DNA of 64,000 nucleotides from Acidimicrobiia bacterium (GTDB lineage Bacteria > Actinomycetota > Acidimicrobiia > IMCC26256 > PALSA-610): positions 7,870 to 71,869 of the forward strand of contig JBBQXS010000016.1 in assembly GCA_038209365.1 (NCBI GenBank), in the 5' to 3' direction. The position numbers were made by a program, and so were the translations under genes. The notes under the pieces were generated by a model, which searched no databases, was not told the DNA's origin, and saw nothing but the letters and a program-made list of their open reading frames with translations. Positions 1,110 to 15,987 of this stretch are shown piece by piece (position 1 is the stretch's first letter; the number at the start of each line of letters is the position of its first letter).

Positions 1110-4100
1110 TCAGCCCTGCTTGGTGGCGGCGTAGTGCTGCACTCCGGGGGCAGGCGCCTTTCCGCGAATGACGGCGCGGATCTCGATGCGTAGCGGGCCG
1201 TCACCGAAGCCGGCGACCACCCGAGAATGTTTGACCGCTTCGGCGGTCTCAGGGACCTGTTCGATGTCCTTCCGCATGCCCAGCGTGGACACGACGTAGT
1301 CCATGTCCCTCCACCCGTTCGGGAAGTGCTTCTGGACGGCCGGGTCGAAATCGAACGCCCAGTAGAACACGACCGTGCCGGAGTAGAACCCGCCGTCCAT
1401 GGGGCGGGCGTCGAAGCCATGGTCGATCAGATAGATCCAGAAGTCGTCGCTGACGAGGAGACGCTTGCTGTGGTCGACGTTGTGGATGAGCCAGTCCTGA
1501 GCGGCGCGCAGTTCCCCGTCGAGTCTCAAGGTCATCACCTCCCGATCGGCGGCGGCCCAGCCGGGGGCGACGACGAGCGCAGACGCGGTCACGACGAACG
1601 CGAGCGCCGCGGCGGCCGCGACGCGCATCGGCCATGCCAAGCGCGTGGACACCCGGCCGACGATCGCTCGCCAGCCTCCTCGATCCGATCCGAGGTGCCG
1701 TACGCGCCCGCGCACGGTGCGCCACAGGACGTCGGCGGTGCCGGCAACGACGATTGCGGCGAAGGGCAGGAGCCCGATCACGTACATGAAGGGGAGGTAC
1801 CCGGGGCGCAGAATCAGCGCGAATTGAATGACACAGGCCACTGCAGCAGCCCGCGTCGTACGCCAGGCGAGCGCGATCGGCGTGAGGAAGAACGCCGCGC
1901 CGAGGAGCCATGGATCGAGCCGCAGCCAATAGCCCACGATCTCACGCACGCCGCTCTGCGGGTCGAAGATGGAGCCGGTGGTCTCGCGCCCGAAGAGCTG
2001 CTCGACGAGCTCGTCCACCAGACTCACGTGGCCCGCACCGGGAATGAGCTCACCCTTCAAGAACGCGTACAGCGGGTACGCGAGGCATGTCAGCACGAAG
2101 AAGGACGCGAGGACCGTGAGGCAATAGCGGCGCGTGCGCCGGTCGAAGTTTTGTGTTGCGGCGACGAACAGCGCCGGCAGGAATACGAGTGCGGTCTCCT
2201 TCGAGAGCACGGCCCCGGCGAAGCACGCGCCGCTGGCAGCGAAGGTCCACAGGCGACGGCGCGGCGACAGCGCGAGGACGAAGGCCGCGAGCGTCCAGGT
2301 GATCGCGGGATTGTCGAGGAACACCAGGCGATGGAAATACATCGACAGCGGTGAGAAAGCGAAGAGCACCACCGCGGCAGCGGCAAAAGGGCGGCCCATG
2401 CCGAGCCTGCGCGCAAGCGTGTACAGCAGGGCGCAGCTCACGATGCTCAGCGCGACCATGAACTGTCGGCCCACCACTATCGAGGGGAGGGTCTGGCCGA
2501 GTCCGACTGCCCAGCTCCAAAGAGTCATCGTGACCCAGCCAAGCGGCGGGTGGCCGTAGCCGTAGGTGTAGTTAGAGAGGGCGCCGTGGGTCTGGACGGC
2601 CCACGCGTTGCTGAGGTAGGTGCCTTCGTCGGGGGAGGGGCCGGGCCAATGGGACAGGTTCGTGAAGCCCACGAGCCCGACGGACGCGAGGAGGAGCAAC
2701 TGCACTGCGACGTCGACGCGTGACGCGCGGAGAACCGCTCGGAATGCGCGCCGGCCTGTGCGCGGGCTCTGCCGCGAATCAGCCCGATCGATTGGCATCG
2801 GTGCGAGCGGCGGGAGCATCGGTGCGACGTTGTCGTCCGTTTGATGCGCTCGCCACGGCGCGCGACGCGGCGGGGCGACCACGTTTCCGTGCGCGCCCGC
2901 GCCATGGTCGGGCCCGCGATTCCCGTTGGAGTTCGCGCTGCCGTTCGACCGCTCGGGCGCAGAGGAAACGGCAACGCCGTTCCGAGTCACGGCCGAGCCG
3001 GAGACGGCCACGCGCCGGCGCATGAGGGGTTCGGACGTGCCCGCTGATCGGGCGGTGTACGGACCCCGGAATCGAGACCGTCGGCTCGTGGTGCCCGCGA
3101 ACACGCCGGCAACGGTCGTGTCGGCATGCGCGGTGGTGACGGTCGTGTCGGCGTGCGCGGTGGTGACGGTCGTGTCGGCGTGCGCCGCAACGCTCGTGTT
3201 GACGTGCATCGCCAGCCTGTCCGACACGGACACCGTTATCTCAGGCTGTGCTTCGCGCTCCGCGGGCTTGGCGGGTGAGTCGTGCCGTGCGAGATGCAAA
3301 CCGAAGTGCGTCGTCTTGTCCCACCCTCGCACGCCGCGCGCCTCGCGCACGACGGCCTGCACGGCTGCAAGCGCGAGAACAGCCTGGTAGACCGGCAGGC
3401 CGAGGGCGAGGCGTCCGTAGTCGCGGATCGACACACGTTCCCCGAACGATCGACCGAAGTCGCCCAGGCCCGCGATCTCTACGGCGAGGACGGCCAACAT
3501 GGGGAACGCGGGAAGGAACGAGAGCAACGTGACCGGTACCGGAGCCTTCACGAGGATCGCCGTCGCGATGGCTGCCGGAAACATGATCAGCACCAAAGCC
3601 ATCAGGTACGGCATTCCCAGGGCAAAGAGCCCGAGCGCGCGCTGTTTGAGCGGCAGACGTTGCCAGTACCTTCTCGACAGTGTCTGAAGGTATCCCTGGT
3701 TCCAGCGCGTGCGTTGACGGAGAAAGGCGCGGAGCGTCGGCGGCGTTTCCTCGCGCGTGACGATCTCGGGCTCGTAGAAGACAACCGTCTTGGCGCCGAG
3801 TGAGCTCAGCCGTACTCCGAGCTCGCAGTCCTCCGCCAAGCACTCTGCGTCCCAGCCTCCGACCTCCCGCAACACCTTGGTTCGTATGAACACCGTGTTC
3901 CCACCGAGCGGGATGAAGCCGACGCGCGCGTGGAAGTGAAGGCGGCTGCGGAACCAGAAGTAGTACTCGAGAACGTTGCGCAGCGCGAACCAGCTCGAGC
4001 GGAAGTTCATGAGCTGGACGCCGGCCTGGACGACGTCGGCACCCGTCTTCTGGAAGCACTGGTCGACCCGCTGCAGGAGTGCCGGATGAACATCGTCCTC

Positions 4101-4799
4101 GGCATCGAACACGCCGGTGATCTCGCCGCTGCAGTGCCGAAGTGCTGCGTTCAGCGCCTTCGGTTTGTTCTTCGGCTCGCTGTCGTCGAGGACAACCTTC
4201 ACGCGATCGGGATACGCACGCGCGACGCGTTCAGCCACTTCTTGCGTCCCGGAGTCGTCAGTTCCCACGACGACGAGCACCTCGAAGTTGGGATGCTCGG
4301 TCGCCACGATTCGGGACAGCGTCGTCTCGAGGACACTTTCCTCATGGCGCGCGGGGATGATCAACGAGAAGGAAAGGCGTGGGTCGAGCCGCTCGGTTCC
4401 GAGACCCGTTGCGTCGAACGCGGCCGGGTGCCGCCAGGTGTCGACCATCCACACGAGGGTCGTCGCACACACGGCGGCCATCACCATGGAGACGCCGACA
4501 TAGAAGAGGTACAAGAGCAACGTGATCTGGACATGCCACAGGTAGGCCGGGACGAAGATCCCGGCCGCCGCGAGCGACACCACGAGCCACAGCGTGGGCA
4601 CTCGACGGGCGCGGGAGCGGTCAGGCCCGGTCGCGAACGGCCCGGCCAGGCGCGCGTCCGTCAGGCCTCGTCTGCCTTGCTTCGCGTATGTGTCGACTGG
4701 CGCGAGTGGCGCGTGTGCGCCGTCGGGCGCATCGATCGCCACAATTACCCCTTCGGAAACCGGTGGAACCGCTTCCCCGTTGCTGCTACCCGACTGCAA
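1110..4799 (-). CDS. Fusion glycosyltransferase: membrane GT2 processive synthase + low-complexity linker + GT-C (PMT_2/ArnT-like) domain
   Basis: 1229-aa ORF. N-terminal half: TM helices, GT2 motifs IIPARHEE, DAEDD and QRTRWNQG (QxxRW processive-synthase signature), then more TM helices. Middle: ~200 aa Ser/Ala/Arg/Thr-rich linker with TTVTTAHAD repeats. C-terminal half: multi-TM domain opening with the PSPDEGTYLSNAW (DE loop-1) motif typical of GT-C/PMT-like enzymes, plus a soluble tail. Start uncertain: TTG at 4799, or alternative GTGs near 4742 and 4601. Confidence 0.75.
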   Translation of the reverse strand: MQSGSSNGEAVPPVSEGVIVAIDAPDGAHAPLAPVDTYAKQGRRGLTDARLAGPFATGPDRSRARRVPTLWLVVSLAAAGIFVPAYLWHVQITLLLYLFYVGVSMVMAAVCATTLVWMVDTWRHPAAFDATGLGTERLDPRLSFSLIIPARHEESVLETTLSRIVATEHPNFEVLVVVGTDDSGTQEVAERVARAYPDRVKVVLDDSEPKNKPKALNAALRHCSGEITGVFDAEDDVHPALLQRVDQCFQKTGADVVQAGVQLMNFRSSWFALRNVLEYYFWFRSRLHFHARVGFIPLGGNTVFIRTKVLREVGGWDAECLAEDCELGVRLSSLGAKTVVFYEPEIVTREETPPTLRAFLRQRTRWNQGYLQTLSRRYWQRLPLKQRALGLFALGMPYLMALVLIMFPAAIATAILVKAPVPVTLLSFLPAFPMLAVLAVEIAGLGDFGRSFGERVSIRDYGRLALGLPVYQAVLALAAVQAVVREARGVRGWDKTTHFGLHLARHDSPAKPAEREAQPEITVSVSDRLAMHVNTSVAAHADTTVTTAHADTTVTTAHADTTVAGVFAGTTSRRSRFRGPYTARSAGTSEPLMRRRVAVSGSAVTRNGVAVSSAPERSNGSANSNGNRGPDHGAGAHGNVVAPPRRAPWRAHQTDDNVAPMLPPLAPMPIDRADSRQSPRTGRRAFRAVLRASRVDVAVQLLLLASVGLVGFTNLSHWPGPSPDEGTYLSNAWAVQTHGALSNYTYGYGHPPLGWVTMTLWSWAVGLGQTLPSIVVGRQFMVALSIVSCALLYTLARRLGMGRPFAAAAVVLFAFSPLSMYFHRLVFLDNPAITWTLAAFVLALSPRRRLWTFAASGACFAGAVLSKETALVFLPALFVAATQNFDRRTRRYCLTVLASFFVLTCLAYPLYAFLKGELIPGAGHVSLVDELVEQLFGRETTGSIFDPQSGVREIVGYWLRLDPWLLGAAFFLTPIALAWRTTRAAAVACVIQFALILRPGYLPFMYVIGLLPFAAIVVAGTADVLWRTVRGRVRHLGSDRGGWRAIVGRVSTRLAWPMRVAAAAALAFVVTASALVVAPGWAAADREVMTLRLDGELRAAQDWLIHNVDHSKRLLVSDDFWIYLIDHGFDARPMDGGFYSGTVVFYWAFDFDPAVQKHFPNGWRDMDYVVSTLGMRKDIEQVPETAEAVKHSRVVAGFGDGPLRIEIRAVIRGKAPAPGVQHYAATKQG
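3112..3185. repeat. 27-bp tandem repeat, about 2.7 units, in frame inside the GT2/GT-C linker
   Basis: Units acggtcgtgtcggc(a/g)tgcgcggtggtg at 3112-3138 and 3139-3165, with a partial unit at 3166-3185. Translates on the minus strand to AHADTTVTT repeats. Confidence 0.9.
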
Positions 4800-5057
4800 A
4801 ATGGCCGACGAACCTGGCGGGGAGACGGGGTGAGATGCCGTCGCTCGGGTGCGTGGTCCAAAATACGAAGCAGTTCTTCACCCCGCCCTCCCCGGTTTGC
4901 TCTTCGGCGCAAGTGAACACGCCAACGCGTGCCGGGACAATGAACAATATTTGCCATGTCCGCGGAGTGACGGGTCAACCGCGCCAGGTTTTCCCAATCC
5001 AGAGCCCGAACTGCGCGCAGAGCCGTCGCAAGCCTCCCTCTATGGTGCTCGACGCCG

Positions 5058-5690
5058 ATGTCGAACATCCCGCCGGATCAGACGCCTTTCCCCCCGGAAT
5101 TCTTCGTGCGGGACGACGAGTCCGGGGACGCCGGGTTCTATGCGTCCCCGCGCTTCGTTACGCATATCGACGAAGGCGCGATCGCGGCTGTCGGCGCGCT
5201 CTATGAGGAAATGCGGCTCGGAGGCGCCGTCCTCGATCTCATGGGCTCGTGGGTCTCGCATTTCACCCGGACGCCGGACGCGCTGACCGTGCTCGGGATG
5301 AACGCGGACGAGCTCGCCGCGAACCGCCAGGCCCGGGCGTGGGTCGTCCATGACCTCAACGCGCAGCCCAGGATTCCCTTTGCCGACGACGCGTTCGACC
5401 ACGCGACCTGCTGCGTCTCGGTCGACTACCTGACGCGCCCGGTCGACGTGTTCCGTGACGTGGCTCGGGTCGTGCGACCCGGCGGCCTCTTCGTGTGCAC
5501 GTTCTCGAACCGGCTGTTCCCGACCAAGGCGATCCGGGGATGGCTCGCATCCGATGACGACGCGCACCAGCAGATCGTGGCCGAGTACTTTCGCCGCGCC
5601 GGCGGTTACGCCCCCGCGATCGCGCGCCGATGCACGCCCGACACGCATCGCGGCGACCCGCTCTTCGCGGTCTGGGCCACAGTGACCTGA
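5058..5690 (+). CDS. Class I SAM-dependent methyltransferase
   Basis: 210-aa ORF. FYASPRFVTHIDEGAI and VLDLMGSWVSHF (motif I-like) are followed by an acidic post-I residue and the FDHATCCVSVDYL / RPGGLFVCTFSN blocks typical of Methyltransf_11-type enzymes. Confidence 0.7.
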   Translation: MSNIPPDQTPFPPEFFVRDDESGDAGFYASPRFVTHIDEGAIAAVGALYEEMRLGGAVLDLMGSWVSHFTRTPDALTVLGMNADELAANRQARAWVVHDLNAQPRIPFADDAFDHATCCVSVDYLTRPVDVFRDVARVVRPGGLFVCTFSNRLFPTKAIRGWLASDDDAHQQIVAEYFRRAGGYAPAIARRCTPDTHRGDPLFAVWATVT

Positions 5691-6325
5691 CCGGACCGAG
5701 GGGGCGTGTGGTCTGCGGGGCCGAGGGCGAGGGCGTACTTGAGTGTCGACCCGATGGCGAGACCGAGGGCGGAGCCGCCGACGACGTCGAGCGGGTTGTG
5801 CGCGCCGACATAGATGCGCGCGAACCCGTTGAGCGCGGCGAGCACCCAGGGGACGAGCTTCCACCACCGGTGCAGATACGGACTGATCAACGCTGCGAGC
5901 GCGACCGCGAGTACTGCATGTCCCGACACGAAGCTGTTGCCGGCGGCAGGGACGTCACCCCGCAGGATGACGTCGCCGATCGTCGTCCCCGGTCGCTCGC
6001 GCTCGACGACGAGCTTCACGACCCGCTCGCCGAGCAGCTTCAGGACGGTCGCAGCGATCGCGGCGAGCGCGAGCCGCCGCCGGTGCACGACGAACGCGAC
6101 GATGGCGACAAGAGGTCCGACGAGGATCGTGCCGAGCTGCTGGAATGGCCATACCGGCCGGTACAGCCACCCGGGCAGGTCGTTGATGGCGTGGAAGACA
6201 TCTGCTTCCCACGACGGCACCGTGCCGTTGTGCGCGACGAGGCCGCACGCAACCAGTACCACGAGGCCCACTGCTGCGACGACAAGATCAGCAGTCCGCC
6301 GAGGAGTCGCCACGGCGCGGACCAT
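5606..6325 (-). CDS. PAP2 superfamily membrane lipid-phosphate phosphatase
   Basis: 239 aa, multi-TM. Three-part PAP2 signature: KLVVERERP, SFVSGH, ARIYVGAHNPLDVVGG. Its 3' end overlaps the convergent methyltransferase by 85 nt. Confidence 0.8.
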   Translation of the reverse strand: MVRAVATPRRTADLVVAAVGLVVLVACGLVAHNGTVPSWEADVFHAINDLPGWLYRPVWPFQQLGTILVGPLVAIVAFVVHRRRLALAAIAATVLKLLGERVVKLVVERERPGTTIGDVILRGDVPAAGNSFVSGHAVLAVALAALISPYLHRWWKLVPWVLAALNGFARIYVGAHNPLDVVGGSALGLAIGSTLKYALALGPADHTPPRSGQVTVAQTAKSGSPRCVSGVHRRAIAGA

Positions 6326-6343
6326 ACGTCACGCAGTACTGTC

Positions 6344-7465
6344 GTGACCATCGACAGCGGGGACACAGCATTCGCGGATACTGATCCGGAGCCGACGTCG
6401 ACGACGACGAAGGCGCGACCTCCGGCGTGGCGCAAGTACGTCGGCATCGCGCTTTCGCTCGCGGTCATCATCGCCGTGTTCTTCTACTTCCTCCCGAAGG
6501 TCGCGGACTACGGCGACGTGTGGGAAACCATCAAGGACATGACGCCCCTCGAGATCGTGACGCTGTTGGCCGTCGCGGCGTGGAACCTCATCAGCTACCA
6601 GCCGGCGATCATGGCCTCGCTCCCCGGGATGACGTTCGGGCAGGCGACGATCTCGTCACAGGCGTCGACCGCGGTCGCGAACACCGTGCCGGTCGGGGGC
6701 GTGTTCGGCATCGGCATGACTGCGACGATGTACCGGTCGTGGGGTTTCAAGCGCCGTCCGATCACGCTGTCGCTGCTCGTCTCGGGGATCTGGAACAACT
6801 TCGCGAAGCTGCTACTGCCCGTCGTGGCGCTCGTACTGGTCGTCATCAGCGGAAGCGCGAGCGCCAGTGTCGTGATTGCCTCGGCGACCGGCGTAATCGC
6901 CCTGGCGGTTTTCCTCGTGCTGTTCACCGCGATCCTGCGCAGCGAGAAGGCCGCGTTCGCGATCGGCGAGTGGGGCTCCAACCGCATGAACTGGCTTCGG
7001 CGGCGCCGCAACAAAGCGCCGATCAGCAGCTTCGGCCACACGCTGGTGAAGTTCCGGCGGGAGACGATCGATCTCGTCCGGCATCGTTGGGTGTCGCTCA
7101 CCGTCTTCACACTGATCAGTCATCTCTCGCTGTTCCTCGTGCTGCTGGTCGCGTTGCGGCACGTCGGCGTCTCCCAGGAAGAAGTGAGCTGGCAGGAGGC
7201 ACTGGCGGCCTTCTCGTTCATCCGCCTCGTCTCTGCCATCCCGTTGACGCCGGGCGGCCTGGGCGTGGTCGAGCTGGGTCTGACCGGGGGACTGGTCGCG
7301 GCCGGCGGAGACGACGCGCAAGTCGTTGCCGCGGTCCTCGTGTACCGCGCCCTCACGTATCTGCCGCCGATCCCGATCGGTGCGGTGTGCTACCTGCTCT
7401 GGCGCCGTCAGCTGGCCCGCCGGCCGTCGCCGGAGATGCCGACGCCGGTGATCGCCCCCACCTGA
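6344..7465 (+). CDS. UPF0104 / lysylphosphatidylglycerol-synthase-TM-region (flippase-like) membrane protein
   Basis: Only the downstream part of ORF 5630-7465 is used, since its 5' part is antisense to the PAP2 gene. GTG at 6344 precedes a polytopic membrane protein (KYVGIALSLAVIIAVFFYFLPKV ... LTPGGLGVVELGL). The family call is by resemblance only. Confidence 0.6.
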   Translation: MTIDSGDTAFADTDPEPTSTTTKARPPAWRKYVGIALSLAVIIAVFFYFLPKVADYGDVWETIKDMTPLEIVTLLAVAAWNLISYQPAIMASLPGMTFGQATISSQASTAVANTVPVGGVFGIGMTATMYRSWGFKRRPITLSLLVSGIWNNFAKLLLPVVALVLVVISGSASASVVIASATGVIALAVFLVLFTAILRSEKAAFAIGEWGSNRMNWLRRRRNKAPISSFGHTLVKFRRETIDLVRHRWVSLTVFTLISHLSLFLVLLVALRHVGVSQEEVSWQEALAAFSFIRLVSAIPLTPGGLGVVELGLTGGLVAAGGDDAQVVAAVLVYRALTYLPPIPIGAVCYLLWRRQLARRPSPEMPTPVIAPT

Positions 7466-8154
7466 GGCGCGGCTTCGGTCCGGTGTCGGCGCGCCCGAAC
7501 CTGTTCCAGGGCGGCGGGCCAGAACAGCGCGAGGCCGGCGCCGATCAGGCTCCCACCGACGACGTCGGTCAGCCAGTGCGCGCCGAGGTACGTGCGCGAC
7601 AAGGCGATCAGGAACGTCAGCAACGCGGCGAGGAGCTCCCACCGCAGCCGGCGGCGACCGGGCGGGAGCAGCGCGAGCACAACCCCGATCGCGGTGACCG
7701 CGATCGCAATCGCATGGCCCGACGGATACGACGCGCCGCTCGTGACAATGAGCGAGCCGGGCGGGCGGGGACGATCGATCGCCGCCTTCAACGGGCCGAT
7801 GCAGAGCTCGGACGTGACGACCGCGCCGACGAACGCGCTCAGCTGCAGGAACCGGCGGCGCACGAGCAGGATCACCACCGTTGCGCCGCGCACGCTCCAT
7901 GAGACCGTCGCCGATCCCAGCGTGGTGAGCCCCTCGAACACCCGTGTTGCCGGATGCCAGCGCGCGTCCTGCATGAGGTCCCGCCACCAGTCGTCGACGA
8001 CCTGTATGCCGGAACGGGTCGACGGGTTGGCGATGAGGACAGAGAGCACGACCGCGGCGAACAGCATGATCAGGGAGGCGACGAGCACTCGCCTGCGGTT
8101 CAACAGCATGTGCGGATGCGGCAGGTGCGGATGCGGCAGGTGCGCGTGTGGCAT
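7408..8154 (-). CDS. PAP2 superfamily membrane lipid-phosphate phosphatase with His/Pro-repeat N-terminus
   Basis: 248 aa. PAP2 signature KAAIDRPRP, SYPSGH, SRTYLGAHWLTDVVGG. Start overlaps the stop of the upstream lipoprotein gene by 1 nt. An alternative ATG at 8109 would remove the MPHAHLPHPHLPHPH extension. Confidence 0.8.
   Translation of the reverse strand: MPHAHLPHPHLPHPHMLLNRRRVLVASLIMLFAAVVLSVLIANPSTRSGIQVVDDWWRDLMQDARWHPATRVFEGLTTLGSATVSWSVRGATVVILLVRRRFLQLSAFVGAVVTSELCIGPLKAAIDRPRPPGSLIVTSGASYPSGHAIAIAVTAIGVVLALLPPGRRRLRWELLAALLTFLIALSRTYLGAHWLTDVVGGSLIGAGLALFWPAALEQVRARRHRTEAAPQVGAITGVGISGDGRRAS
8110..8154. repeat. 15-bp tandem repeat x3 (third unit diverged) at the 5' end of the PAP2 gene
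   Basis: gtgcggatgcggcag at 8110-8124 and 8125-8139, then gtgcgcgtgtggcat at 8140-8154. Encodes HLPHP repeats on the minus strand. Confidence 0.8.
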
Positions 8155-8720
8155 CAGGGCCCGTTCTCGATCACGCCGTGTGACTCCCGGTCCAGTGCTT
8201 CGCGAAGCTCGGCGCGGGTCGTGAAACCGACCATCAACGTCGCTTCGTTGACCAGGATGCTCGGTCGATCGGTGTCGAGCTCGAATCGATACGTGACACA
8301 GCCGCCGTCGAAGACATACGAGCGCGTGCCGGCGTAGTCGGGAGAGACCCGGTCAACCGTCTCGTACCGCTCGGTCTGTGGCTCGTCGGAGGGGATGCGC
8401 ACGGCACCGGCCGTGTCGCACGTGTGGGCCAGTGTGACTTCCAATGCGTGCTCACCGGCCCGGTCGGAGGCGAGCGTCATACGCGAGCGGTTTTGGCGCA
8501 CGTCGAGCTCGACGAAGCTCCAACCGGCGGGCATCCCTCGCACGCACGGGACGAGCGTCGCGTCCCGGACCGACTGCGCGATCAGCGTCAGCGTCGAGAG
8601 CTGCTCGGTGCCGCAGTCCGGTCGGGCCAGGGTGACGTCGGAGCCGCAGGCAGCGATCGTCGACCCCGCGAGCAATGCGACGGCCGACGCAGCACCAAGG
8701 CGAGCGGCCCTCCGCCTCAC
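8154..8720 (-). CDS. Lipoprotein of unknown function
   Basis: 188 aa with lipobox signal MRRRAARLGAASAVALLAGSTIAAC. Has a 4-nt overlap with the upstream PAP2-kinase gene and a 1-nt overlap with the downstream PAP2 gene. No recognisable family. Confidence 0.6.
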   Translation of the reverse strand: MRRRAARLGAASAVALLAGSTIAACGSDVTLARPDCGTEQLSTLTLIAQSVRDATLVPCVRGMPAGWSFVELDVRQNRSRMTLASDRAGEHALEVTLAHTCDTAGAVRIPSDEPQTERYETVDRVSPDYAGTRSYVFDGGCVTYRFELDTDRPSILVNEATLMVGFTTRAELREALDRESHGVIENGP

Positions 8721-10387
8721 GACGGCACGGTCAGTACGTTGCCCAACACGATCGACGCGACCACGACGCTCACCACGATGGTCGCCGTCACGAGGCCGAG
8801 GCGCCGGATGGTCCAGCGCTGGATGGAGATCACGGGCCGCGCCGGCGCGAGTGCCCGGAACTTCTCGATCAGCGCCCGGCCGTCCGCGCGCAGGAACCCG
8901 CGCAGCTGGGTCGGGCTCGTGACACCTCGAGTCGCGGCAAATGCCTCCGCGATCTCATCCGGCGTGAAGACGTTGCACGCCCGCGCGTAGACGCGTTCGG
9001 CGTCGGTCTTCAGGGCGAGGACGAGCATCATGTTGGCGAGGTCGACGGCCTCACGCCACGCGCTCGGACGGATCTGCGCGAACGCCACGTCGATCAGCAC
9101 GATGTGACCGTCGCGGACCATGATGTTCGCGGGCTTGATGTCTCGATGCGCGACGCCGGCGTTCCACATCGTGCGGATCGCCTGGAGTCCCTCGTCGACG
9201 AGCGCGTCGTCGACCTCGACTTCGGGATCGCCGATCTCCTTGGCGCCGTCGAGGAAGTCGGTGACGAGCACGTATTCACGTTCCGGCGTGATCTCGACGA
9301 TGCCGTAGGTTGCGACGACCGGCACGCCGGCGTCGTGCATCACGCGCATCAGGTAGTCCTCGTACTGGACCAACCGGCGAACCGTCGAGAAGCTGGATTC
9401 GTCCTCGAGGCGCCCGTAGAGAATCTCCCGCCCGAGCTTGTACCAACGGTCCGAACGAACGTGGTTGCGCGCGTAGAGCTTGGCGAACAGTCGAACCGGC
9501 GGATCACCTGCAACCGTGAGGCGCATCGGCGTCGATCCGGCCGAGCCCGCAAGACCGAACGGCTTGATCTCCTCGATGTCGAGGCCGAGCTGTTCGGAGA
9601 TCGCGGTGCGGATCGCGGTCTGCCGTTCCTCGTCGAGCGCGAGGTGCGCGCTGCGCCCCCGCCGATACTCGACCGGGAACACCTGCTCCGGAAGGAAGAG
9701 GCGGCAGACGAGCGCGACGATCGTGACGGTCAACAGCGTGCCGAACACCACATCCGACGGGTGGTCGCTGCCGAGGTACACGCGAGCGACGCCGACCGCC
9801 ACGATCGTGAGACCGCTCGCGGCCTGGACGGCGTACCTCAGACGCCCCCGCGGCACAACCGTGAGGCAGATACCGCAGAGCAGCCCCGCGAGCGCGACGA
9901 TCGGCAGGGAGGGATGCGAGTAACCGCTCCAACGGCCGAGGATCTCCACGCCGATCGGGCGCTCGCGCTGGAACAACTCGGCCAGGCCACTACCGACGAT
10001 CGCTGACACCGTCCATGCGATCAGCAGTACCGCGAGGAAGCGGAACCGCTTGAACGCGAGGAGCAGCAACGCCGCCGACCACCGCATGATGTGGATCGAC
10101 CAGGGCGATGCGATGCCCTCGACGTTCTTCGCGACGCGCGTCAGGCCGGGACCACGAAGGTCGAGGATCGGGTCCATCAGCGCGCGGTCGAGGCGCTCGA
10201 GCCACAACCCGCCGCCCTGCCACAAGCCGATGACGATGTAGAGGAGGAGCACGCCGCCCGAAAGTGCGAGCCGGACCCAGTCCCAGCGTTCGAGATGACG
10301 CGGCAGAGGCGGCGGCTCGCCCGACGGCCTGCGCACGCGACCACGTCGACTCCGCGTGCCGGCCGTCCTGAGCGGCACATTCACCAT
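8717..10387 (-). CDS. PAP2-like membrane domain fused to a eukaryotic-like (Kdo/WaaP/RIO-type) kinase domain with C-terminal TM anchor
   Basis: ATG at 10387 (MVNVPLRTAG) within ORF 8717-10912. The N-terminal TM region carries FQRERP, SHPSLP and ARVYLGSDHPSDV (PAP2-like, but the C2/C3 motifs are degenerate). The C-terminal half carries VRLFAKLY, HRDIKPANIMV and LIDVAFAQ kinase motifs, then the TM helix LGLVTATIVVSVVVASIVLGNVL. Confidence 0.7.
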   Translation of the reverse strand: MVNVPLRTAGTRSRRGRVRRPSGEPPPLPRHLERWDWVRLALSGGVLLLYIVIGLWQGGGLWLERLDRALMDPILDLRGPGLTRVAKNVEGIASPWSIHIMRWSAALLLLAFKRFRFLAVLLIAWTVSAIVGSGLAELFQRERPIGVEILGRWSGYSHPSLPIVALAGLLCGICLTVVPRGRLRYAVQAASGLTIVAVGVARVYLGSDHPSDVVFGTLLTVTIVALVCRLFLPEQVFPVEYRRGRSAHLALDEERQTAIRTAISEQLGLDIEEIKPFGLAGSAGSTPMRLTVAGDPPVRLFAKLYARNHVRSDRWYKLGREILYGRLEDESSFSTVRRLVQYEDYLMRVMHDAGVPVVATYGIVEITPEREYVLVTDFLDGAKEIGDPEVEVDDALVDEGLQAIRTMWNAGVAHRDIKPANIMVRDGHIVLIDVAFAQIRPSAWREAVDLANMMLVLALKTDAERVYARACNVFTPDEIAEAFAATRGVTSPTQLRGFLRADGRALIEKFRALAPARPVISIQRWTIRRLGLVTATIVVSVVVASIVLGNVLTVPS

Positions 10388-10433
10388 GTTGCACCCTCTG
10401 CCGTCCCGGATCGTCGTCGTTACGATACGCAGC

Positions 10434-11360
10434 ATGCGCTCGGCGCCGCAGGGCTGGCGGCACTCTCCGGTGCTCGGGCTGCTGCTCGTGCTCGCGCTCA
10501 GCGCCTGCGGAGGTGATGGGCCGGGTCGCACCCGGGAACAGGTCGACCCACGATTCGTGCGCGTCGCGTCCTTCGATTTCCCCGAGAGCGAGTTGCTCGC
10601 CGAGCTGTTCGCCCAGGCACTCGACGCCAGGGGTATCCCCGTACAGCGACGCTTCGGTCTCGGATCGCGGGAGATCGTGCAGCCCGCGCTCGAGGAGGGC
10701 CTCATCGATGTCGTGCCCGAGTACCTGGCGTCGTCGCTCGAATTCGCGAGCCTCGCGCCGTTGACCTCCCGAGCAGCTCCGGTCGTGGCCGAGCAGCTGC
10801 GCGTACGAATGGCCGGACGCAATGTCTCTGCGTTGTCGTTTGCGGCGGCGGTCGACCGCAACGCGATCGCGATGTCTGCCCGTACGGCCAGCCAGCTGGG
10901 GGTGACGAGCATCAGCGAGTTGGCGCCCGTCGCGTCGACGCTCGATTTCTTGGGCCCACCCGAATGCCCCGAGCGTCCGGCGTGTCTCCCGGTGCTCGAA
11001 CAGAACTACGGGATCAGGTTCCGTTCCTACACGGCGGTCCCGCTCGGGCTGATCGTGCAACAACTCGACGCCGGCGAAGCCGAGGTCGGCGTCGTGCTGA
11101 CGTCGGATCCGCTCGTGCAAGAGCACGGGCTCGTCCTTCTGAAGCCGGACCGGGACCAACCGCGCGCGGAGAACATCGTGCCGCTCGTGCGTACGTCTGT
11201 GCTGCAGACGAATGACGGCGTCAAGGATGCGCTCGAAACCGTCACGGCGAGGTTGAGGACCGCGGATCTGCGCGCGCTGAACAAGCGCGTCGCAAGCGGT
11301 GAGCCGATCGCCTCGGTTGCACGGGACTGGCTCCGCAACACCGCTCGGTCGACGCCGTGA
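10434..11360 (+). CDS. Glycine betaine/osmoprotectant-type ABC substrate-binding lipoprotein (OpuAC/ProX-like), no cognate permease or ATPase nearby
   Basis: ATG at 10434 gives lipoprotein signal MRSAPQGWRHSPVLGLLLVLALSAC. VRVASFDFPESELLAELFAQALDARG and IDVVPEYLASSLEF are typical of this family. Confidence 0.75.
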   Translation: MRSAPQGWRHSPVLGLLLVLALSACGGDGPGRTREQVDPRFVRVASFDFPESELLAELFAQALDARGIPVQRRFGLGSREIVQPALEEGLIDVVPEYLASSLEFASLAPLTSRAAPVVAEQLRVRMAGRNVSALSFAAAVDRNAIAMSARTASQLGVTSISELAPVASTLDFLGPPECPERPACLPVLEQNYGIRFRSYTAVPLGLIVQQLDAGEAEVGVVLTSDPLVQEHGLVLLKPDRDQPRAENIVPLVRTSVLQTNDGVKDALETVTARLRTADLRALNKRVASGEPIASVARDWLRNTARSTP

Positions 11361-11926
11361 ACGCTCGGCGTCTTGTGGTTGCGAGCGCCGGGTCGGGCGC
11401 GTTCTCGGTGCTCGCCCGGCACGCGCGTCGCGGAGAGGTCGGTGCACTGGAAGAGGAGGTGTTTCGTGGCATCAACGCGCTTCCCGAGGCCGCCGGCGGT
11501 CCGTTGTGGATCGCCATGCAGGCGGGCAGCCTTGCCGCGGTTGGTGTCGCCGCGGGTGGGATGGCACTCGCCGGACGCCGCGACACGGCCGTCCGTCTGG
11601 GCGTCGCGGGCTCGTCCGTTTGGGCGCTCTGCAAGGTAGTGAAGTCCCGGATCGGGCGTGGCCGGCCCGGCGCGCACTTGCAGAACGTCATCGTGCGGGG
11701 CGCCGCCCAATCGGGGCTCGGCTTTCCGTCCGGACACACCGCGGTCGCCTTCACCCTCGCCGGTGTCGCGTCACCGGTGCTCTCGCGCCGGGCTTCCGGG
11801 CTCGCGTGGACGGCGGCCGCGCTGGTCGGCGTCGCCCGTCAGTACGTCGGCGCGCATCTTCCCGCCGATGTCGCCGGCGGTGTGGCGGTCGGGCTCGTCG
11901 CGACCGCGGTGGCCGCGCAGTCGTGA
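11357..11926 (+). CDS. PAP2 superfamily membrane lipid-phosphate phosphatase
   Basis: 189 aa. Signature KSRIGRGRP, GFPSGH, ARQYVGAHLPADVAGG. GTGA start/stop overlap with the binding-protein gene. Confidence 0.8.
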   Translation: MNARRLVVASAGSGAFSVLARHARRGEVGALEEEVFRGINALPEAAGGPLWIAMQAGSLAAVGVAAGGMALAGRRDTAVRLGVAGSSVWALCKVVKSRIGRGRPGAHLQNVIVRGAAQSGLGFPSGHTAVAFTLAGVASPVLSRRASGLAWTAAALVGVARQYVGAHLPADVAGGVAVGLVATAVAAQS

Positions 11927-11933
11927 CCGGTTG

Positions 11934-13892
11934 TCAGTTGTAGCCGTCACGGATGATCGCGGCGATGACGCGCAATACCAACGACACGGAGAGCCCGAGT
12001 CCGACATAGCCGAACACTCGCGTGAGTGGCGTGTGGCCGAGCGTCCCACCCTCGTTCACCGACAACAACAACGCGGAGCCCGCGAAGAGCAGCCCGCCGA
12101 GCAATCCGAGCACCAGGCGGTTGACGAGCGTCGAGATGACGCGTGCGTCGTCCTCGGTCGCGAACAACGCCACCTGGTGCCGGAGCTCGCCTCGTGCGGT
12201 CAACGACGCGATGCGGTCGATCTGCGCGGGCAGGCGCCGGAGCCGCGGGAGCTCCTGCATGACTTCCTGCATGACCTGCTCTTGGAGCGTGCCACCTTCC
12301 GGTGTCGGGGCGGGGATCGCGGTGTCGAGCATCCGCCTGACGCCGTCGAGCAGCGAGTACCCAGGGCTGATGATGCGAGCGGTGCCGTCGAGGAGCACCA
12401 GCGCGCGCATGACGACGCTGAACTCACCCGGCATCTGGATGTCGTACGTCGCGAGCAACGGGAGGATGTCGCTGAGCGCGTTGACGTCGATCGGCTTGCC
12501 GGCCTGCACGTTCTCGCTGATCAGTCGATCGAGAGCGCGCTCCAGACCCCCTTCGCGCGCGTTCGGCCCGACGTGCGCGACCTGCTCGATGCTGTCGAGC
12601 AGCGCGGCGCTGTCCCCGCGGAGCGCGGCCGCGGTCATCTCCATCACCGCCACCCGTTGGCGCCCGTCGAGCCGGCCGGTGGAACCGAAGTCGATGAGAC
12701 CGAGTGTGCCGTCGCCGAGCACGAGCACGTTGCCGGGGTGCGGGTCGGAGTGGTAGTGCCCGTGCGAGAACATGTGCGTCACGACCGTGTGCACCAGCCG
12801 ATCGGCGAGCTCCTCCGGATCGATACCGAGCTCCGCAAGACGCTGCGCATCACCGACCTTCGGGCCGTCGAAGCGCTCCTGCACCATCACGCGCTTCGTC
12901 AGATGTTCGCTGTAGATGCGGGGGATCCGAACGCCGGAGTCGGGTGTGGTTGCGGCCGCGAGATCGATCGCGTTGGCGGCCTCGCGTACGAAGTCGAGCT
13001 CGTTGCGCAGGCTCGCTGCGAACTCCTCGGCCACGACCGAGACGTGAAGGTCCTTGCCCTGCGGTGTTCTTCGCTCGACTGCCAACGCCAAGTGCATGAT
13101 CGCGGCGATGTCGCGCTCTACGAGCTCGTCCATGTCGGGTCGTTGGATCTTCACGACGACCGGCTCCCCGGTCTTGAGTCGGGCCGCGTATGCCTGCGCG
13201 ATCGACGCGGACCCGATGGGCACCCACTCGAAGTCGTCGAACACGTCGTCCACCGACTGCCCCAGCTCCTTCTCGAGCTGCTCCTGCATCGGCTCGCGGG
13301 CCTCCGGCGCGACCCCGCTCTGCAGCTTGCCGAGCTCCTGGCGCAGATCGGGCGGCAGCAGATCGACGCGGGTCGACGCGAGCTGCCCGACCTTGATGAA
13401 CGCGACACCGCATTCCTCGAGCGTCTTGCGCAACGCGACGCCCATCGGCGCCCGGCGCGTGTTGCGCGACGGTCGCAACAGCCCGGGAACGATCAGCCCG
13501 TTCTTGCGTGCGATACCGAGGACCTGCCGATACCTGGCGAACGGCGCGAGCCGGCGGCGGATCTCGTAGAAGGGCCGGGGCAGAACCAGCAGTCCGGCGC
13601 GTTCCCCACGCGCGAGTGTGCCGGGCCGGGCCAAGAAGTCGAGGGCCAATGCCGCGAGCATCGTGAAGATGCCCGACAGCACGACCGTCGGCACGGTGAG
13701 CGTCGCCGCGTCCCAATCCCAGTCGCTCAGGCTGAGAGCGAGCAGGTTGCCACTGATCCACCCGATGGATCCGGCGATGCCGACGGCCACCCACGAACGC
13801 CGCACGCCGAGCATCCGCGCCGCGAGCAGCGTGGACGCGATCGCGAACGGGATCTGAAGGATCAGACCGAACAGGACCTCGATGACGCGCAC
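11934..13892 (-). CDS. ABC1/UbiB (AarF) family atypical kinase with N- and C-terminal TM segments
   Basis: FIKVGQLASTRVDLLPPDL, PIGSASIAQAYAARL, VVVKIQRPDM and HSDPHPGNVLV are hallmark ABC1/UbiB blocks. Start set at GTG 13892 so it does not run into the divergent ExoD gene; the ATG of MLGVRRSW is an alternative. Confidence 0.75.
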   Translation of the reverse strand: MRVIEVLFGLILQIPFAIASTLLAARMLGVRRSWVAVGIAGSIGWISGNLLALSLSDWDWDAATLTVPTVVLSGIFTMLAALALDFLARPGTLARGERAGLLVLPRPFYEIRRRLAPFARYRQVLGIARKNGLIVPGLLRPSRNTRRAPMGVALRKTLEECGVAFIKVGQLASTRVDLLPPDLRQELGKLQSGVAPEAREPMQEQLEKELGQSVDDVFDDFEWVPIGSASIAQAYAARLKTGEPVVVKIQRPDMDELVERDIAAIMHLALAVERRTPQGKDLHVSVVAEEFAASLRNELDFVREAANAIDLAAATTPDSGVRIPRIYSEHLTKRVMVQERFDGPKVGDAQRLAELGIDPEELADRLVHTVVTHMFSHGHYHSDPHPGNVLVLGDGTLGLIDFGSTGRLDGRQRVAVMEMTAAALRGDSAALLDSIEQVAHVGPNAREGGLERALDRLISENVQAGKPIDVNALSDILPLLATYDIQMPGEFSVVMRALVLLDGTARIISPGYSLLDGVRRMLDTAIPAPTPEGGTLQEQVMQEVMQELPRLRRLPAQIDRIASLTARGELRHQVALFATEDDARVISTLVNRLVLGLLGGLLFAGSALLLSVNEGGTLGHTPLTRVFGYVGLGLSVSLVLRVIAAIIRDGYN

Positions 13893-13946
13893 AGCGGCCG
13901 AGGCTAGAGCCCATCGCGTCCGTCCGTCCCGAGCGGGGACGCGAGA

Positions 13947-14561
13947 ATGGGTGCCGAGATGAAGGCCGAACGAGATTTCAGCGACGAGCTCGAGCAGTGG
14001 CTGCGCAGCGACGGGCCCAAGACGATCGGCGGCCTCGAGCAGGTCTTCGAGACGAAGACGTTCGCGGTCGCGATCCTGCTGCTGATGTTCCTGCCCGCGA
14101 TCCCTGCACCGACAGGCGGCGTCACGCACGTGTTCGAAGCGATCACGATCATCATCGCCGCACAGATGGTGATCGGCCGGCGCGGGCTCTGGATCCCGAA
14201 GCGCTGGCGCAACCGGGAGCTCGGCGCGCTGTCAACCGGCAAGGCGCTCCCGTTCGTCATTCGACGCATCCGGTGGTTCGAGAAGTTCTCGCGTCCGCGA
14301 ATGTCCTACCTGTTCGACAACACGACGTTCCTGCGGCTGCTCGGCGTCGTCATCATCGCGTTCACCCTCGGCGCCTTCGTCGCACCCCCCTTCTCCGGAC
14401 TGGACACACTGCCGGCGCTCGGAGTCGTCATAATCGCGCTCTCGATCATCCTCGAGGATGTTGTCGTGCTCGCGATCGGTGTGTTCATCGGCATCGGCGG
14501 CATCGTGCTGATCGTCACGATCGGGCGCGCACTCGCGAACTTCCTACGGAACCTGTTCTGA
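13947..14561 (+). CDS. ExoD family exopolysaccharide-synthesis membrane protein
   Basis: 204 aa. FAVAILLLMFLPAIPAPTGGVTHVFEAITIIIAAQMVIGRRGLWIPKRW matches the ExoD family pattern as I recall it. Confidence 0.7.
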   Translation: MGAEMKAERDFSDELEQWLRSDGPKTIGGLEQVFETKTFAVAILLLMFLPAIPAPTGGVTHVFEAITIIIAAQMVIGRRGLWIPKRWRNRELGALSTGKALPFVIRRIRWFEKFSRPRMSYLFDNTTFLRLLGVVIIAFTLGAFVAPPFSGLDTLPALGVVIIALSIILEDVVVLAIGVFIGIGGIVLIVTIGRALANFLRNLF

Positions 14562-14988: not shown

Positions 14989-15162
14989 CGGTTCTCCTCC
15001 GGGGTGGACGGATCTGCCGCGCCCATCATCGGGACCCGGGGTCACATCACGACGACGGCGGCGCGAAGTCTGCGCGAACCCCTGCTGAGGAATGGCTGAC
15101 GGGTATCCGTGAAGTGCCGGCGGTAACTCGTCAGGACCCGGCGGCCGGGTACGGTCGCCGGC

Positions 15163-15987
15163 ATGCCGCCGCGACCGAGGCCGGAGAAGGTGCGGCGCGT
15201 CGGTGCGGACGCGGTGCAGCGGCTGCGACGCACCGGCGCCGAGCAGTTTGCCGCACTTCTGCAACGTGACCCGCAGACGATGGCGCGCGCGGTCGAGCTC
15301 GGCCTCGTCCGGCGGGAGTGGCTCGAACGCCCGGGTCAGGGGCCGCTGGCCGCGGCGACTCCGGTCGAGGTCCTCGAGCGGTTCCTCGAGCGTGAGGTCG
15401 AGCGGCGTCCGTCGGCGATTGCGGCGCTCGGCCTCTCGACGGTCCAGATCCTCTCCGCGAACGCGACCGCCCGGACCGTGGACGCCGCGTCGGAGGGCGT
15501 CGCCGACACGATGACCGTGGTGTTCACCGACCTGGAGGGCTTCACCTCCTATACCGAGCGCGAGGGCGACGAGACCGCGGGCCGTTTGCTCGCCGAGCAC
15601 CAGCGGGTCGTCGGCCCGATCGTGCGGGGCCGCGGCGGACGCATCGTCAAGCACCTCGGCGACGGGCTCCTCGTCACGTTCCCGAGCGCAGAGGCGGCGG
15701 TGCTGGCCGGGCTCGAGCTGGTCGAGGCGCACGACGACCCGCTTCGCATGCGGGCCGGGATGCACACCGGCGAGGTCCTCGTGATGCGCAACCACGACGT
15801 CATCGGCCACGTCGTCAACGTGGCGGCGCGGGTCGTCGAGTCCGCACGAGGCGGTGAGGTACTCGCCACCGCCGAGGTGCGCGATGCGGTGGGCGCGCTT
15901 CCGGGCGTGCGATTCGGCCGCTTGCGCCGTCGGGGCTTCAAGGGGCTCGACGAGTCCGTCGGGGTCTGTCCGGTTCATCGGTCATAG
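15163..15987 (+). CDS. Class III adenylate/guanylate cyclase domain protein
   Basis: VVFTDLEGFTSYTE, IVKHLGDGLLVTF, MRAGMHTGEV and GHVVNVAARV are canonical class III cyclase blocks. Confidence 0.8.
   Translation: MPPRPRPEKVRRVGADAVQRLRRTGAEQFAALLQRDPQTMARAVELGLVRREWLERPGQGPLAAATPVEVLERFLEREVERRPSAIAALGLSTVQILSANATARTVDAASEGVADTMTVVFTDLEGFTSYTEREGDETAGRLLAEHQRVVGPIVRGRGGRIVKHLGDGLLVTFPSAEAAVLAGLELVEAHDDPLRMRAGMHTGEVLVMRNHDVIGHVVNVAARVVESARGGEVLATAEVRDAVGALPGVRFGRLRRRGFKGLDESVGVCPVHRS

Follow-up and report, generated by a model that had tools for sequence, protein, structure and literature searches.

A Membrane Kinase Fused to a Degenerate PAP2 Phosphatase Domain as a Candidate Envelope-lipid Sensor in Soil and Sediment Acidimicrobiia

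The window analyzed here, a stretch of 64,000 nucleotides (GC content ~68%) from contig JBBQXS010000016.1 of an Acidimicrobiia bacterium, carries three overlapping minus-strand genes, designated genes 1, 2, and 3; coordinates are positions in this window throughout. Gene 1 (8717-10387) encodes a protein of 556 residues in which a PAP2-like membrane domain that has lost its catalytic residues is fused to a kinase domain and a C-terminal transmembrane helix, as assigned from its open reading frame (ORF), start codon, Pfam matches, homologs, and AlphaFold2 (AF2) model. Gene 2 (8154-8720; ORF, lipobox, and AF2 model) encodes a predicted lipoprotein of 188 residues with a four-cysteine extracytoplasmic α/β domain, and gene 3 (7408-8154; Pfam PAP2) an intact PAP2 lipid phosphate phosphatase of 248 residues. 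It is credible that the gene 1 family represents a bacterial membrane kinase of eukaryotic-like type whose pseudo-phosphatase input module is without precedent, and that it acts by the mechanism proposed below.

RESULTS

The Pseudo-PAP2 Domain

Residues 34-231 of gene 1 (9695-10288, minus strand) correspond to a six-helix PAP2-fold domain, identified by hhalign, a PgpB profile, Foldseek, and residue counts in alignment columns. Pfam models for PAP2, Pkinase, Kdo, and RIO1 all hit the protein. Its score with the PAP2 model (PF01569) is 23.2 bits, below the gathering cutoff of 27.2, which some homologs pass, and 62 of 63 gene 1 homologs match the model at E ≤ 1e-3. A profile built from these 63 homologs aligns with nine intact PAP2s from the window and related loci (hhalign probability 98.5%, E 3.8e-15) and with Bacillus subtilis PgpB (PDB 5jki; E 4e-14), on which Foldseek superimposes the AF2 model of gene 1 (mean predicted local distance difference test score (pLDDT) 82.6) with a TM-score of 0.80 and a root-mean-square deviation of 2.9 Å.

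An earlier note on this DNA had described motif C1 as present, the His of C2 as absent, and the His and spacing of C3 as shifted, and had judged the phosphatase to be compromised. In the hhalign alignments with the intact PAP2s and 5jki, Arg143-Pro144 of motif C1 (K-x6-R-P) are indeed kept, but the Lys is lost, being replaced by Ala136; the residue at this position varies across the family, and Lys is absent from it in the 63 close and 60 diverged homologs. Motif C2 (P-S-G-H) retains Pro159-Ser160 and has Leu161-Pro162 in place of Gly-His, as had been read by eye; the His position is occupied by Pro in 55/63 close homologs and by His in none of the 63. Motif C3 (S-R-x5-H-x3-D) is altered, but by substitution and not by a change of spacing: it reads Ala201-Arg202, Arg202 and Asp212 are kept, and Asp208, followed at +1 by a His, takes the place of the nucleophilic His. 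In 62/63 close homologs the position of the C3 His holds Asp or Glu. Among 60 diverged representatives (38-53% identity), the C3 His is found in none, a His at the C2 position in one, and the two together in none. The loss of all three catalytic residues therefore rules out the phospho-histidine chemistry by which PAP2 enzymes work. Profile alignment did not restore the catalytic His residues and, judged from these columns, the PAP2 half of gene 1 is catalytically dead across the whole family, in agreement with the earlier assessment.

The Kinase Domain

The kinase domain occupies residues 232-526 (8810-9694, minus strand; predicted cytoplasmic) and was delineated from invariant columns, Foldseek, and a Bud32-type alignment. 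It is followed by a seventh transmembrane helix, residues 527-552 (8732-8809, minus strand), which is preceded by the sequence RWTIRR and is indicated by the AF2 helix, hydropathy, and charge; the C-terminal anchor of the earlier description is thereby borne out. The kinase elements are a glycine-rich loop (GSAGST), Lys303, the catalytic loop HRDIKPAN (414-421), Asp433-Val-Ala, and AVDL (447-450). Those previously singled out, namely the β3 Lys, the HRDIKPANI loop, and DVA, hold up well, as Lys303, His414-Arg415-Asp416-x-Lys418-x-x-Asn421, and Asp433-Val-Ala are invariant in the 63 homologs. In the diverged representatives Lys303 and Asp416 are each kept in 59/61, and Asn421 and Asp433 in 57/61, compared with only 34/55 diverged members for the C3 Arg of the PAP2 half, whose retained Asp also drifts; the kinase is therefore constrained more tightly than the PAP2 remnants. 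A strongly conserved insert after β3, HxRSDRWYKLGRxxLYGRLEDE, provides a signature for the family. By its residues and its predicted structure, the C-terminal half of gene 1 is a kinase fold with a complete set of catalytic residues.

The placement of this domain among kinases is ambiguous. Foldseek gives a probability of 1.0 to many eukaryotic protein kinases, to PRPK/Bud32 (6wqx, entry 6wqx_D), and to Rio1 (1ztf). The HRDIKPAN loop aligns with the loops of TTK and MSK1 and is of the Ser/Thr protein-kinase type, and the AVDL helix that follows the metal-binding Asp aligns with the Bud32-type structure 8k20_B. A DFG...APE segment was not found in gene 1, which has DVA, ~15 residues from Asp433 to the helix containing Asp449, and no APE. 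The Pkinase model (PF00069) scores 29.8 bits, below its cutoff of 31.7, and covers only residues 395-438, and RIO1 scores 21.4 bits, just below cutoff; the Kdo/WaaP model (PF06293) passes, with 27.1 bits versus a cutoff of 21.3. Of the 63 members, Pkinase detects 55, RIO1 36, and Kdo 35 at E ≤ 1e-3. The equivalog cutoffs for Bud32 are not reached (TIGR03724, 30.8 versus 125 bits; NF011463, 29 versus 188), and no Kae1 gene was seen in the neighborhoods that were read.

Predicted Topology and the N-terminal Motif

The 33-residue N-terminal tail of gene 1 contains eight Lys and Arg residues, and further basic clusters are located between helices 2 and 3 (FKRFR), between helices 4 and 5 (PRGRLR), and before helix 7 (RWTIRR). 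This pattern places the N terminus and the kinase inside and the C1-C2 loop, the C3 loop, and the C terminus outside; in PgpB-type PAP2 enzymes, the catalytic loops face outside. From sequence and model we infer that the kinase is cytoplasmic, that the PAP2 pocket is at the outer leaflet, and that the gene 2 domain is outside. The AF2 model is one continuous chain in which helix 6 runs into the kinase, so that the kinase would be tethered to the membrane at both ends.

Column counts also delimit a motif in the N-terminal tail, R19-R-P-S22-G-E-P-P-P-L-P29 (10301-10333, minus strand), predicted to be cytoplasmic. Arg19, Arg20, Pro21, Gly23, Pro26, and Leu28 are invariant in the 63 sequences, and position 22 is Ser or Thr in 41 of the 46 diverged representatives that align there. 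In relatives with N-terminal extensions, RRPSGEPPPLP persists as an internal linker. We hypothesize that this motif, in which Ser22 of RRPSG forms a basic-x-x-Ser/Thr site beside a kinase, is a plausible candidate for a phospho-acceptor or docking site.

The Four-cysteine Partner

The product of gene 2 is a predicted lipoprotein with the signal peptide MRRRAARLGAASAVALLAGSTIAAC and the lipobox IAAC (…TIAAC; Cys25), which fits the pattern [LVI][ASTVI][GAS]C, and the lipobox Cys column is conserved in the forms encoded by a separate gene. Cys36, Cys59, Cys101, and Cys141 are invariant; together with the lipobox, this agrees with a disulfide-bonded domain outside the cytoplasm. Neither Pfam nor NCBIfam contains a family that matches it. 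Gene 2 is 42-48% identical to the C-terminal ~170 residues of long-form relatives of gene 1 that have ~725 residues (E 6e-41 and 8e-39), in which the domain comes after helix 7. In a census of 82 loci from metagenomes and metagenome-assembled genomes (MAGs), 68 had enough downstream sequence for this domain to be counted, and it directly follows the kinase in 67 of them, either fused in frame (30 loci) or as a separate gene (37 loci). This linkage, with the fusions, identifies gene 2 as a split-off domain of the kinase protein and its obligate partner. The AF2 model of gene 2, although confident (pLDDT 88.6), has no match in the PDB at E ≤ 0.001; weak matches (E 0.008-0.1, TM-score 0.3-0.4) are to 3hlz from Bacteroides and to PsbP-, LpqN-, and DcrB-like sandwiches.

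Two variants of the domain were observed. In one MAG (L005:9698-10238) the gene 2 homolog is split over two frames by a frameshift or sequencing error, and this locus is the sole apparent exception to an intact partner domain. The homolog that follows a STAND-TPR relative at L089:9143-9994 is interrupted midway through the domain by an insertion of ~100 residues.

The Operon

The sequence GTGA at 8717-8720 holds the stop codon of gene 1 and the GTG start of gene 2 in a 4-nucleotide overlap, and TGATG the stop codon of gene 2 and the ATG of gene 3 in a 1-nucleotide overlap at 8154; the ORFs and junctions agree with the layout given in the earlier note. The ATG of gene 1 at 10387 is supported by an ortholog with 86% identity that starts with the same MV(N/D)VPLR. 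GC content at third codon positions is 0.83-0.89 for the three genes, and relative to the orthologs there are 125 synonymous versus 48 non-synonymous changes in gene 1 and 48 versus 32 in gene 2. A longer ORF for gene 1, of 731 residues from position 10912, was rejected because a strong OpuAC gene occupies the opposite strand of the upstream stretch and because the extra length of the ~725-residue relatives is C-terminal, consisting of the gene 2 domain. The window sequence was recovered from independent sediment and soil metagenome runs, all of them DNA, and the closest relatives in one genome-collection scan are four MAGs from Acidimicrobiia or uncultured Actinomycetes with 82-91% protein identity. 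By these sequence comparisons, the three genes are a real and widely conserved operon of soil and sediment Acidimicrobiia.

A scan of positions 7000-11000 for promoters and terminators gave nothing above chance. Only 46 bp (10388-10433) separate gene 1 from the divergent OpuAC gene and 18 bp (6326-6343) a flippase-like gene from the divergent PAP2 gene at 5606-6325. There is little space in these short divergent intergenic regions for two promoters with leaders, which suggests leaderless transcripts.

Distribution, Domain Fusions, and a Sister Family

The pseudo-PAP2-kinase architecture is found in >8000 database proteins that form 418 clusters at 50% identity, so that the fusion, which the earlier note had allowed might be an artefact, is genuine. 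These proteins are labeled "phosphatase PAP2 family protein" or "Bud32," and both labels are misleading. In literature searches that paired PAP2 with kinase, Bud32, or pseudokinase, no account of the fusion family turned up.

Several members carry additional domains. An N-terminal receiver domain is present in P0210, a receiver with a GerE helix-turn-helix in P0213 (on five contigs), and STAND/AAA_16 with TPR in P0189, P0192, and P0197, whereas P0193 joins an N-terminal intact PAP2, a dead PAP2, and the kinase in one chain. The fused forms retain a downstream gene 2 homolog and, in one case, also the flippase-like gene and a PAP2. At L014:10995-12590 and L044:4143-4871, a second full-length paralog of the pseudo-PAP2-kinase with 36-43% identity lies within a few kilobases.

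A sister family is represented by a neighboring protein of ~790 residues in at least nine loci (L037:10852-13221, L018:4178-6577, and L035:6920-9280; also L031, L034, L050, L056, L063, and L073). It consists of degenerate PAP2-like helices, a kinase-like domain, and a C-terminal LPG_synthase_TM domain of the MprF-type flippase-like kind (107-119 bits), and its alignment with gene 1 extends over both halves, PAP2 helices and kinase alike (hhalign 97.8%, E 6.6e-13). In most cases Ser, Gly, or Ala stands in place of the HRD Asp (HRS, HRG, or HRA).

Gene 3 and the Linked Neighbors

Gene 3 scores 64.8 bits with the Pfam PAP2 model and has all of the catalytic residues (Lys123, Arg130-Pro131, Ser145-Gly146-His147, Arg187, His193, and Asp197); with the lipobox of gene 2, this upholds the earlier description of a lipoprotein and a fully intact PAP2 downstream of the fusion. 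It is the closest paralog in the window of the dead domain (30% identity over residues 72-246 of gene 1, E 4e-10), which is in keeping with its earlier designation as a cognate phosphatase. In 34/55 loci an intact PAP2 is found no more than 2.5 kb downstream, and these linkage counts, with those of the gene 2 domain, favor the proposal that both downstream products are functional partners of gene 1. The predicted N terminus of gene 3 (8110-8154) is a His/Pro-rich repeat, MPHAHLPHPHLPHPH, of which the orthologs share only the core EHPLL.

On the other side of gene 1, and divergent from it, is a plus-strand gene (10434-11360; Pfam OpuAC 129.5 bits) for a predicted substrate-binding lipoprotein of OpuAC fold with an LSAC lipobox. 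In 35/58 loci the gene directly upstream of the fusion is for an OpuAC protein; it is co-directional, often with overlap, in 26 loci and divergent in 9, and P0258 combines an OpuAC C terminus and the kinase in one protein. No permease or ATPase gene is present beside the OpuAC gene in the window. The protein is related to the binders ProX, OpuBC, OsmF, and EgtUC; positions 97, 143, and 222 are presumably those of the aromatic cage, an assumption we treat as a lead only and from which no ligand is claimed. Of these positions, only Tyr97 is kept as such throughout the subfamily; position 143 is Asn in all members, and position 222 is mostly Phe, with Leu in the window protein; the subfamily also has an invariant Cys pair of its own. 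The OpuAC gene overlaps by 4 nucleotides (GTGA, 11357-11360) with a gene for an intact PAP2 (11357-11926, plus strand), and this pairing recurs in L005 and L026.

Downstream, a gene for an MprF-type flippase-like membrane protein that consists of LPG_synthase_TM only (6344-7465, plus strand; Pfam 80.7 bits, TIGR00374, start codon) is convergent with gene 3, and the 3' ends of the two overlap by 58 bp (7408-7465). A flippase-like gene lies within a few kilobases of the module in 13 of the 26 loci with long flanks. Divergent from it in the window is the gene for a third intact PAP2 (5606-6325, minus strand; Pfam PAP2 70.2 bits), and PAP2s of this type recur near the module in other loci.

Other genes in the vicinity include one for an ABC1/UbiB-type atypical kinase with predicted membrane segments (11934-14129, minus strand; ABC1 216 bits), homologs of which directly follow the gene 2 homolog in L055 and L070. 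On the minus strand, a gene for a 1255-residue fusion of a family 2 glycosyltransferase (GT2) with a PMT-like (GT-C) domain (1110-4877) is followed by a GH5 glycoside hydrolase gene (12-1109). On the plus strand are an ExoD-family gene (13947-14561), conserved mainly in the closest MAGs (L001-L004), an adenylate/guanylate cyclase-domain gene (15127-15987), kept in L001, L003, L004, and the metagenome loci L013 and L022, and, 21 nucleotides after the cyclase stop codon, a second LPG_synthase_TM flippase-like gene (16009-17037), kept in L001 and L003. The GH5, GT2+GT-C, ExoD, and cyclase genes were considered as pointers to a lipid pathway and rejected, since they are not conserved with the module elsewhere.

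DISCUSSION

A Proposed Receptor-type Kinase

We favor an explanation in which gene 1 is a receptor-type membrane kinase that relays an envelope-lipid signal across the membrane, and regard the chances of this proposal, in the steps that follow, as evenly balanced. The dead pocket would bind, without hydrolyzing it, a lipid (pyro)phosphate like those on which the co-encoded PAP2s act, with the retained Arg, Ser, Arg, and Asp as its phosphate-contacting residues; alternatively, it may pair with the co-encoded active PAP2s. The four-cysteine domain, and often also the OpuAC-type lipoprotein, would supply additional input from outside. Helices 6 and 7, on either side of the kinase, would transmit the occupancy of the pocket and so set kinase activity; the kinase would then phosphorylate itself, with Ser22 as a candidate site, and/or cytoplasmic regulators, and phosphorylation would adjust the handling of envelope lipids by the PAP2s and the flippase-like protein. 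In the present locus the four-cysteine domain would have been split off as gene 2 and be made by translational coupling. As to the ligand, the nature of the substrate as protein and not lipid, and the direction of signaling, we infer signaling rather than metabolism because of the fusions to signaling domains and the protein-kinase-type loop, and envelope lipid phosphates as its subject because the partners are active PAP2s and a flippase-like protein. GlnH-GlnX-PknG and MviN, compared with gene 1 below, offer precedents.

A number of observations weigh against this proposal. The drift of the retained PAP2 Arg and Asp would fit a scaffold as well as a ligand pocket. The kinase is as near to the Bud32/RIO and Kdo kinases as to Hanks kinases, and by its sequence it has no activation segment or APE motif; Bud32 and RIO proteins often act as ATPases. 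The N-terminal motif is disordered in the AF2 model and is not docked to the kinase, and the topology of gene 1 is a prediction. The classic aromatic cage seems to be only partly preserved in the OpuAC protein, which therefore does not point to a particular ligand, and the annotated neighborhoods that were read contained neither an FHA protein nor a PP2C phosphatase.

Alternative Explanations

The foremost competitor, which we consider unlikely, is a lipid kinase/phosphatase cycle in which the kinase phosphorylates an inner-leaflet lipid or polyprenol whose tail is held by the PAP2-like helices, the flippase-like protein exports the product, and the intact PAP2s dephosphorylate it outside. It would account for the Kdo/WaaP model being the sole kinase model to score above its curated cutoff, with matches in 35/63 members, for the attachment of the kinase to the membrane at both ends, and for partners that are lipid enzymes and a flippase-like protein; a lipid-associated ABC1/UbiB kinase is also encoded nearby in the window and in L055 and L070, and a lipid module of separate PAP2 and protein-kinase-like (PKL) kinase genes has been proposed in Segetibacter (bioRxiv 10.64898/2026.09.18.752743). 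However, the catalytic loop HRDxKPxN, with its Lys, is of the protein-kinase type, the degenerate pocket is predicted to be on the opposite face of the membrane from the kinase, the receiver, helix-turn-helix, and STAND-TPR fusions point to signaling, and the cycle offers no role for the obligate four-cysteine outer domain or the binding protein. In kinases of the PKL fold that act on lipids or small molecules, the catalytic-loop Lys is usually missing. The view of the earlier note that the domain is a Kdo/WaaP-like small-molecule kinase is disfavored by the Ser/Thr type of the loop, by the Bud32-like AVDL, and by the REC, GerE, and STAND-TPR fusions. Its suggestion of a futile cycle on one lipid fares no better, because the predicted topology places the PAP2 pocket, the gene 2 domain, and, by homology, the active site of the intact PAP2 outside and the kinase inside, parted by the membrane, an arrangement that favors transmembrane signaling.

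Somewhat less probable still is an ATPase switch, in which the Bud32/RIO-like domain hydrolyzes ATP to control or power a lipid-phosphate path through the dead PAP2 helices and/or the flippase-like partner. ATP hydrolysis serves as a conformational switch in Bud32, RIO, and UbiB, and Bud32 and RIO are the closest small-kinase relatives of the domain. The sister family, in which the cassette is fused to LPG_synthase_TM and the HRD Asp is lost, would also fit such a role, as would the vertebrate PLPPR/PRG proteins, dead PAP2s with non-enzymatic, lipid-related roles. Yet the complete and invariant phosphotransfer set, including the HRD Asp and Lys418, exceeds what a switch needs, and the fusions to signaling domains also weigh against it.

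A third possibility, which we judge improbable, is that gene 1 is a pseudoenzyme regulator whose dead PAP2 domain heterodimerizes with the gene 3 PAP2, the kinase tuning the phosphatase or being tuned by it, with no free ligand. The status of gene 3 as nearest paralog of the dead domain, the joining of intact PAP2, dead PAP2, and kinase in P0193, and the drift of the retained pocket residues in diverged members are all consistent with this, but only 34/55 loci have an intact PAP2 next to the kinase, as against 67/68 for the gene 2 domain, and the idea is compatible with the receptor-kinase proposal and hard to separate from it. That gene 1 is an artefact, the product of mis-assembly or of an overlooked stop codon between two genes, can safely be dismissed in view of the thousands of such proteins from independent assemblies, the four MAGs at 82-91% identity, the recovery of the DNA in independent metagenome runs, and the single continuous chain of the AF2 model.

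Significance

How bacteria monitor the state of their envelope lipids, above all the carrier-lipid and phospholipid phosphate pools on the outside of the membrane, is for the most part an open question, and most bacterial eukaryotic-like kinases have no known stimulus. The pseudo-PAP2-kinase family, accompanied by an obligate outer partner and linked to genes for active phosphatases, a flippase-like protein, and a binding protein, is a concrete, testable candidate for an envelope-lipid sensor. In a more ambitious form of the receptor-kinase proposal, which we offer as speculation that may well go too far, the dead lipid phosphatase would be the ligand module of an unrecognized class of bacterial receptor kinases that reads an outer-leaflet lipid (pyro)phosphate, for example a polyprenyl carrier or a phosphatidic or lyso-lipid, and reports it, together with an obligate disulfide-bonded ectodomain, by phosphorylation, a kinase-dead version of the cassette having been reused to control an MprF-type flippase. 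Gene 1 also provides a clean bacterial case of a pseudoenzyme domain recruited as a signaling input, the mirror of MviN, in which the dead part is the kinase.

Comparison with Known Systems

The PAP2 enzymes B. subtilis PgpB/YodM (5jki), LpxE, and Escherichia coli PgpB share with gene 1 the six-helix fold and an outer-leaflet pocket, the latter being predicted for gene 1, which differs from them in the absence of the C1 Lys, the C2 His, and the C3 His and in its fused kinase. The vertebrate PLPPR/PRG proteins have the PAP2 fold, have lost the catalytic residues, function in non-enzymatic signaling related to lipid phosphates, and carry a cytoplasmic extension. They are, however, eukaryotic, have no kinase domain, and lost catalysis independently, so that the likeness to gene 1 is one of principle only.

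Bud32/PRPK and RIO resemble the gene 1 kinase in being compact, in having no activation segment, and in the AVDL that follows the metal-binding Asp, but their catalytic loop is HGDLxxxN, whereas that of gene 1 is the Hanks-type HRDIKPxN. The gene 1 kinase also differs from them in its unique β3 insert, in its location between membrane helices, and in having no KEOPS or ribosome context.

In Segetibacter SEAE1, a kinase of the PKL fold (PIK-like) is linked to a PAP2 and a secreted protein in a proposed lipid module (bioRxiv 10.64898/2026.09.18.752743). This module is unrelated to the present one and differs from it in that it consists of separate genes, contains a soluble phosphatidylinositol-kinase-like fold, is a lineage-restricted system of Bacteroidota, and has a PAP2 that is presumed to be active. 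In the GlnH-GlnX-PknG system of Actinobacteria, a binding lipoprotein, a membrane protein, and a Ser/Thr kinase, encoded together, convey an outside signal inward (PMC6069109, PMC9769921). Here, too, a binding lipoprotein is encoded with a membrane kinase and not with transporter genes, a working resemblance only, as PknG is soluble and canonical, GlnX has four transmembrane helices and is unrelated to PAP2, and GlnH is an amino-acid binder that is not of the OpuAC type.

In Mycobacterium tuberculosis MviN, which joins a MurJ flippase to a pseudokinase, the kinase-like domain is followed by a further transmembrane helix and an outer domain. MviN has a polytopic lipid-handling domain ahead of the kinase-like domain (PMC12599244), so that its parts are in the same order as those of gene 1, and both proteins belong to an envelope-lipid context. 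Their membrane and outer domains are unrelated, and the live and dead parts are exchanged: MviN combines an active lipid domain with a dead kinase, gene 1 a dead lipid domain with a kinase that looks active. The sister family, with the cassette fused to LPG_synthase_TM and the HRD motif lost, is a closer parallel to MviN than is gene 1 itself.

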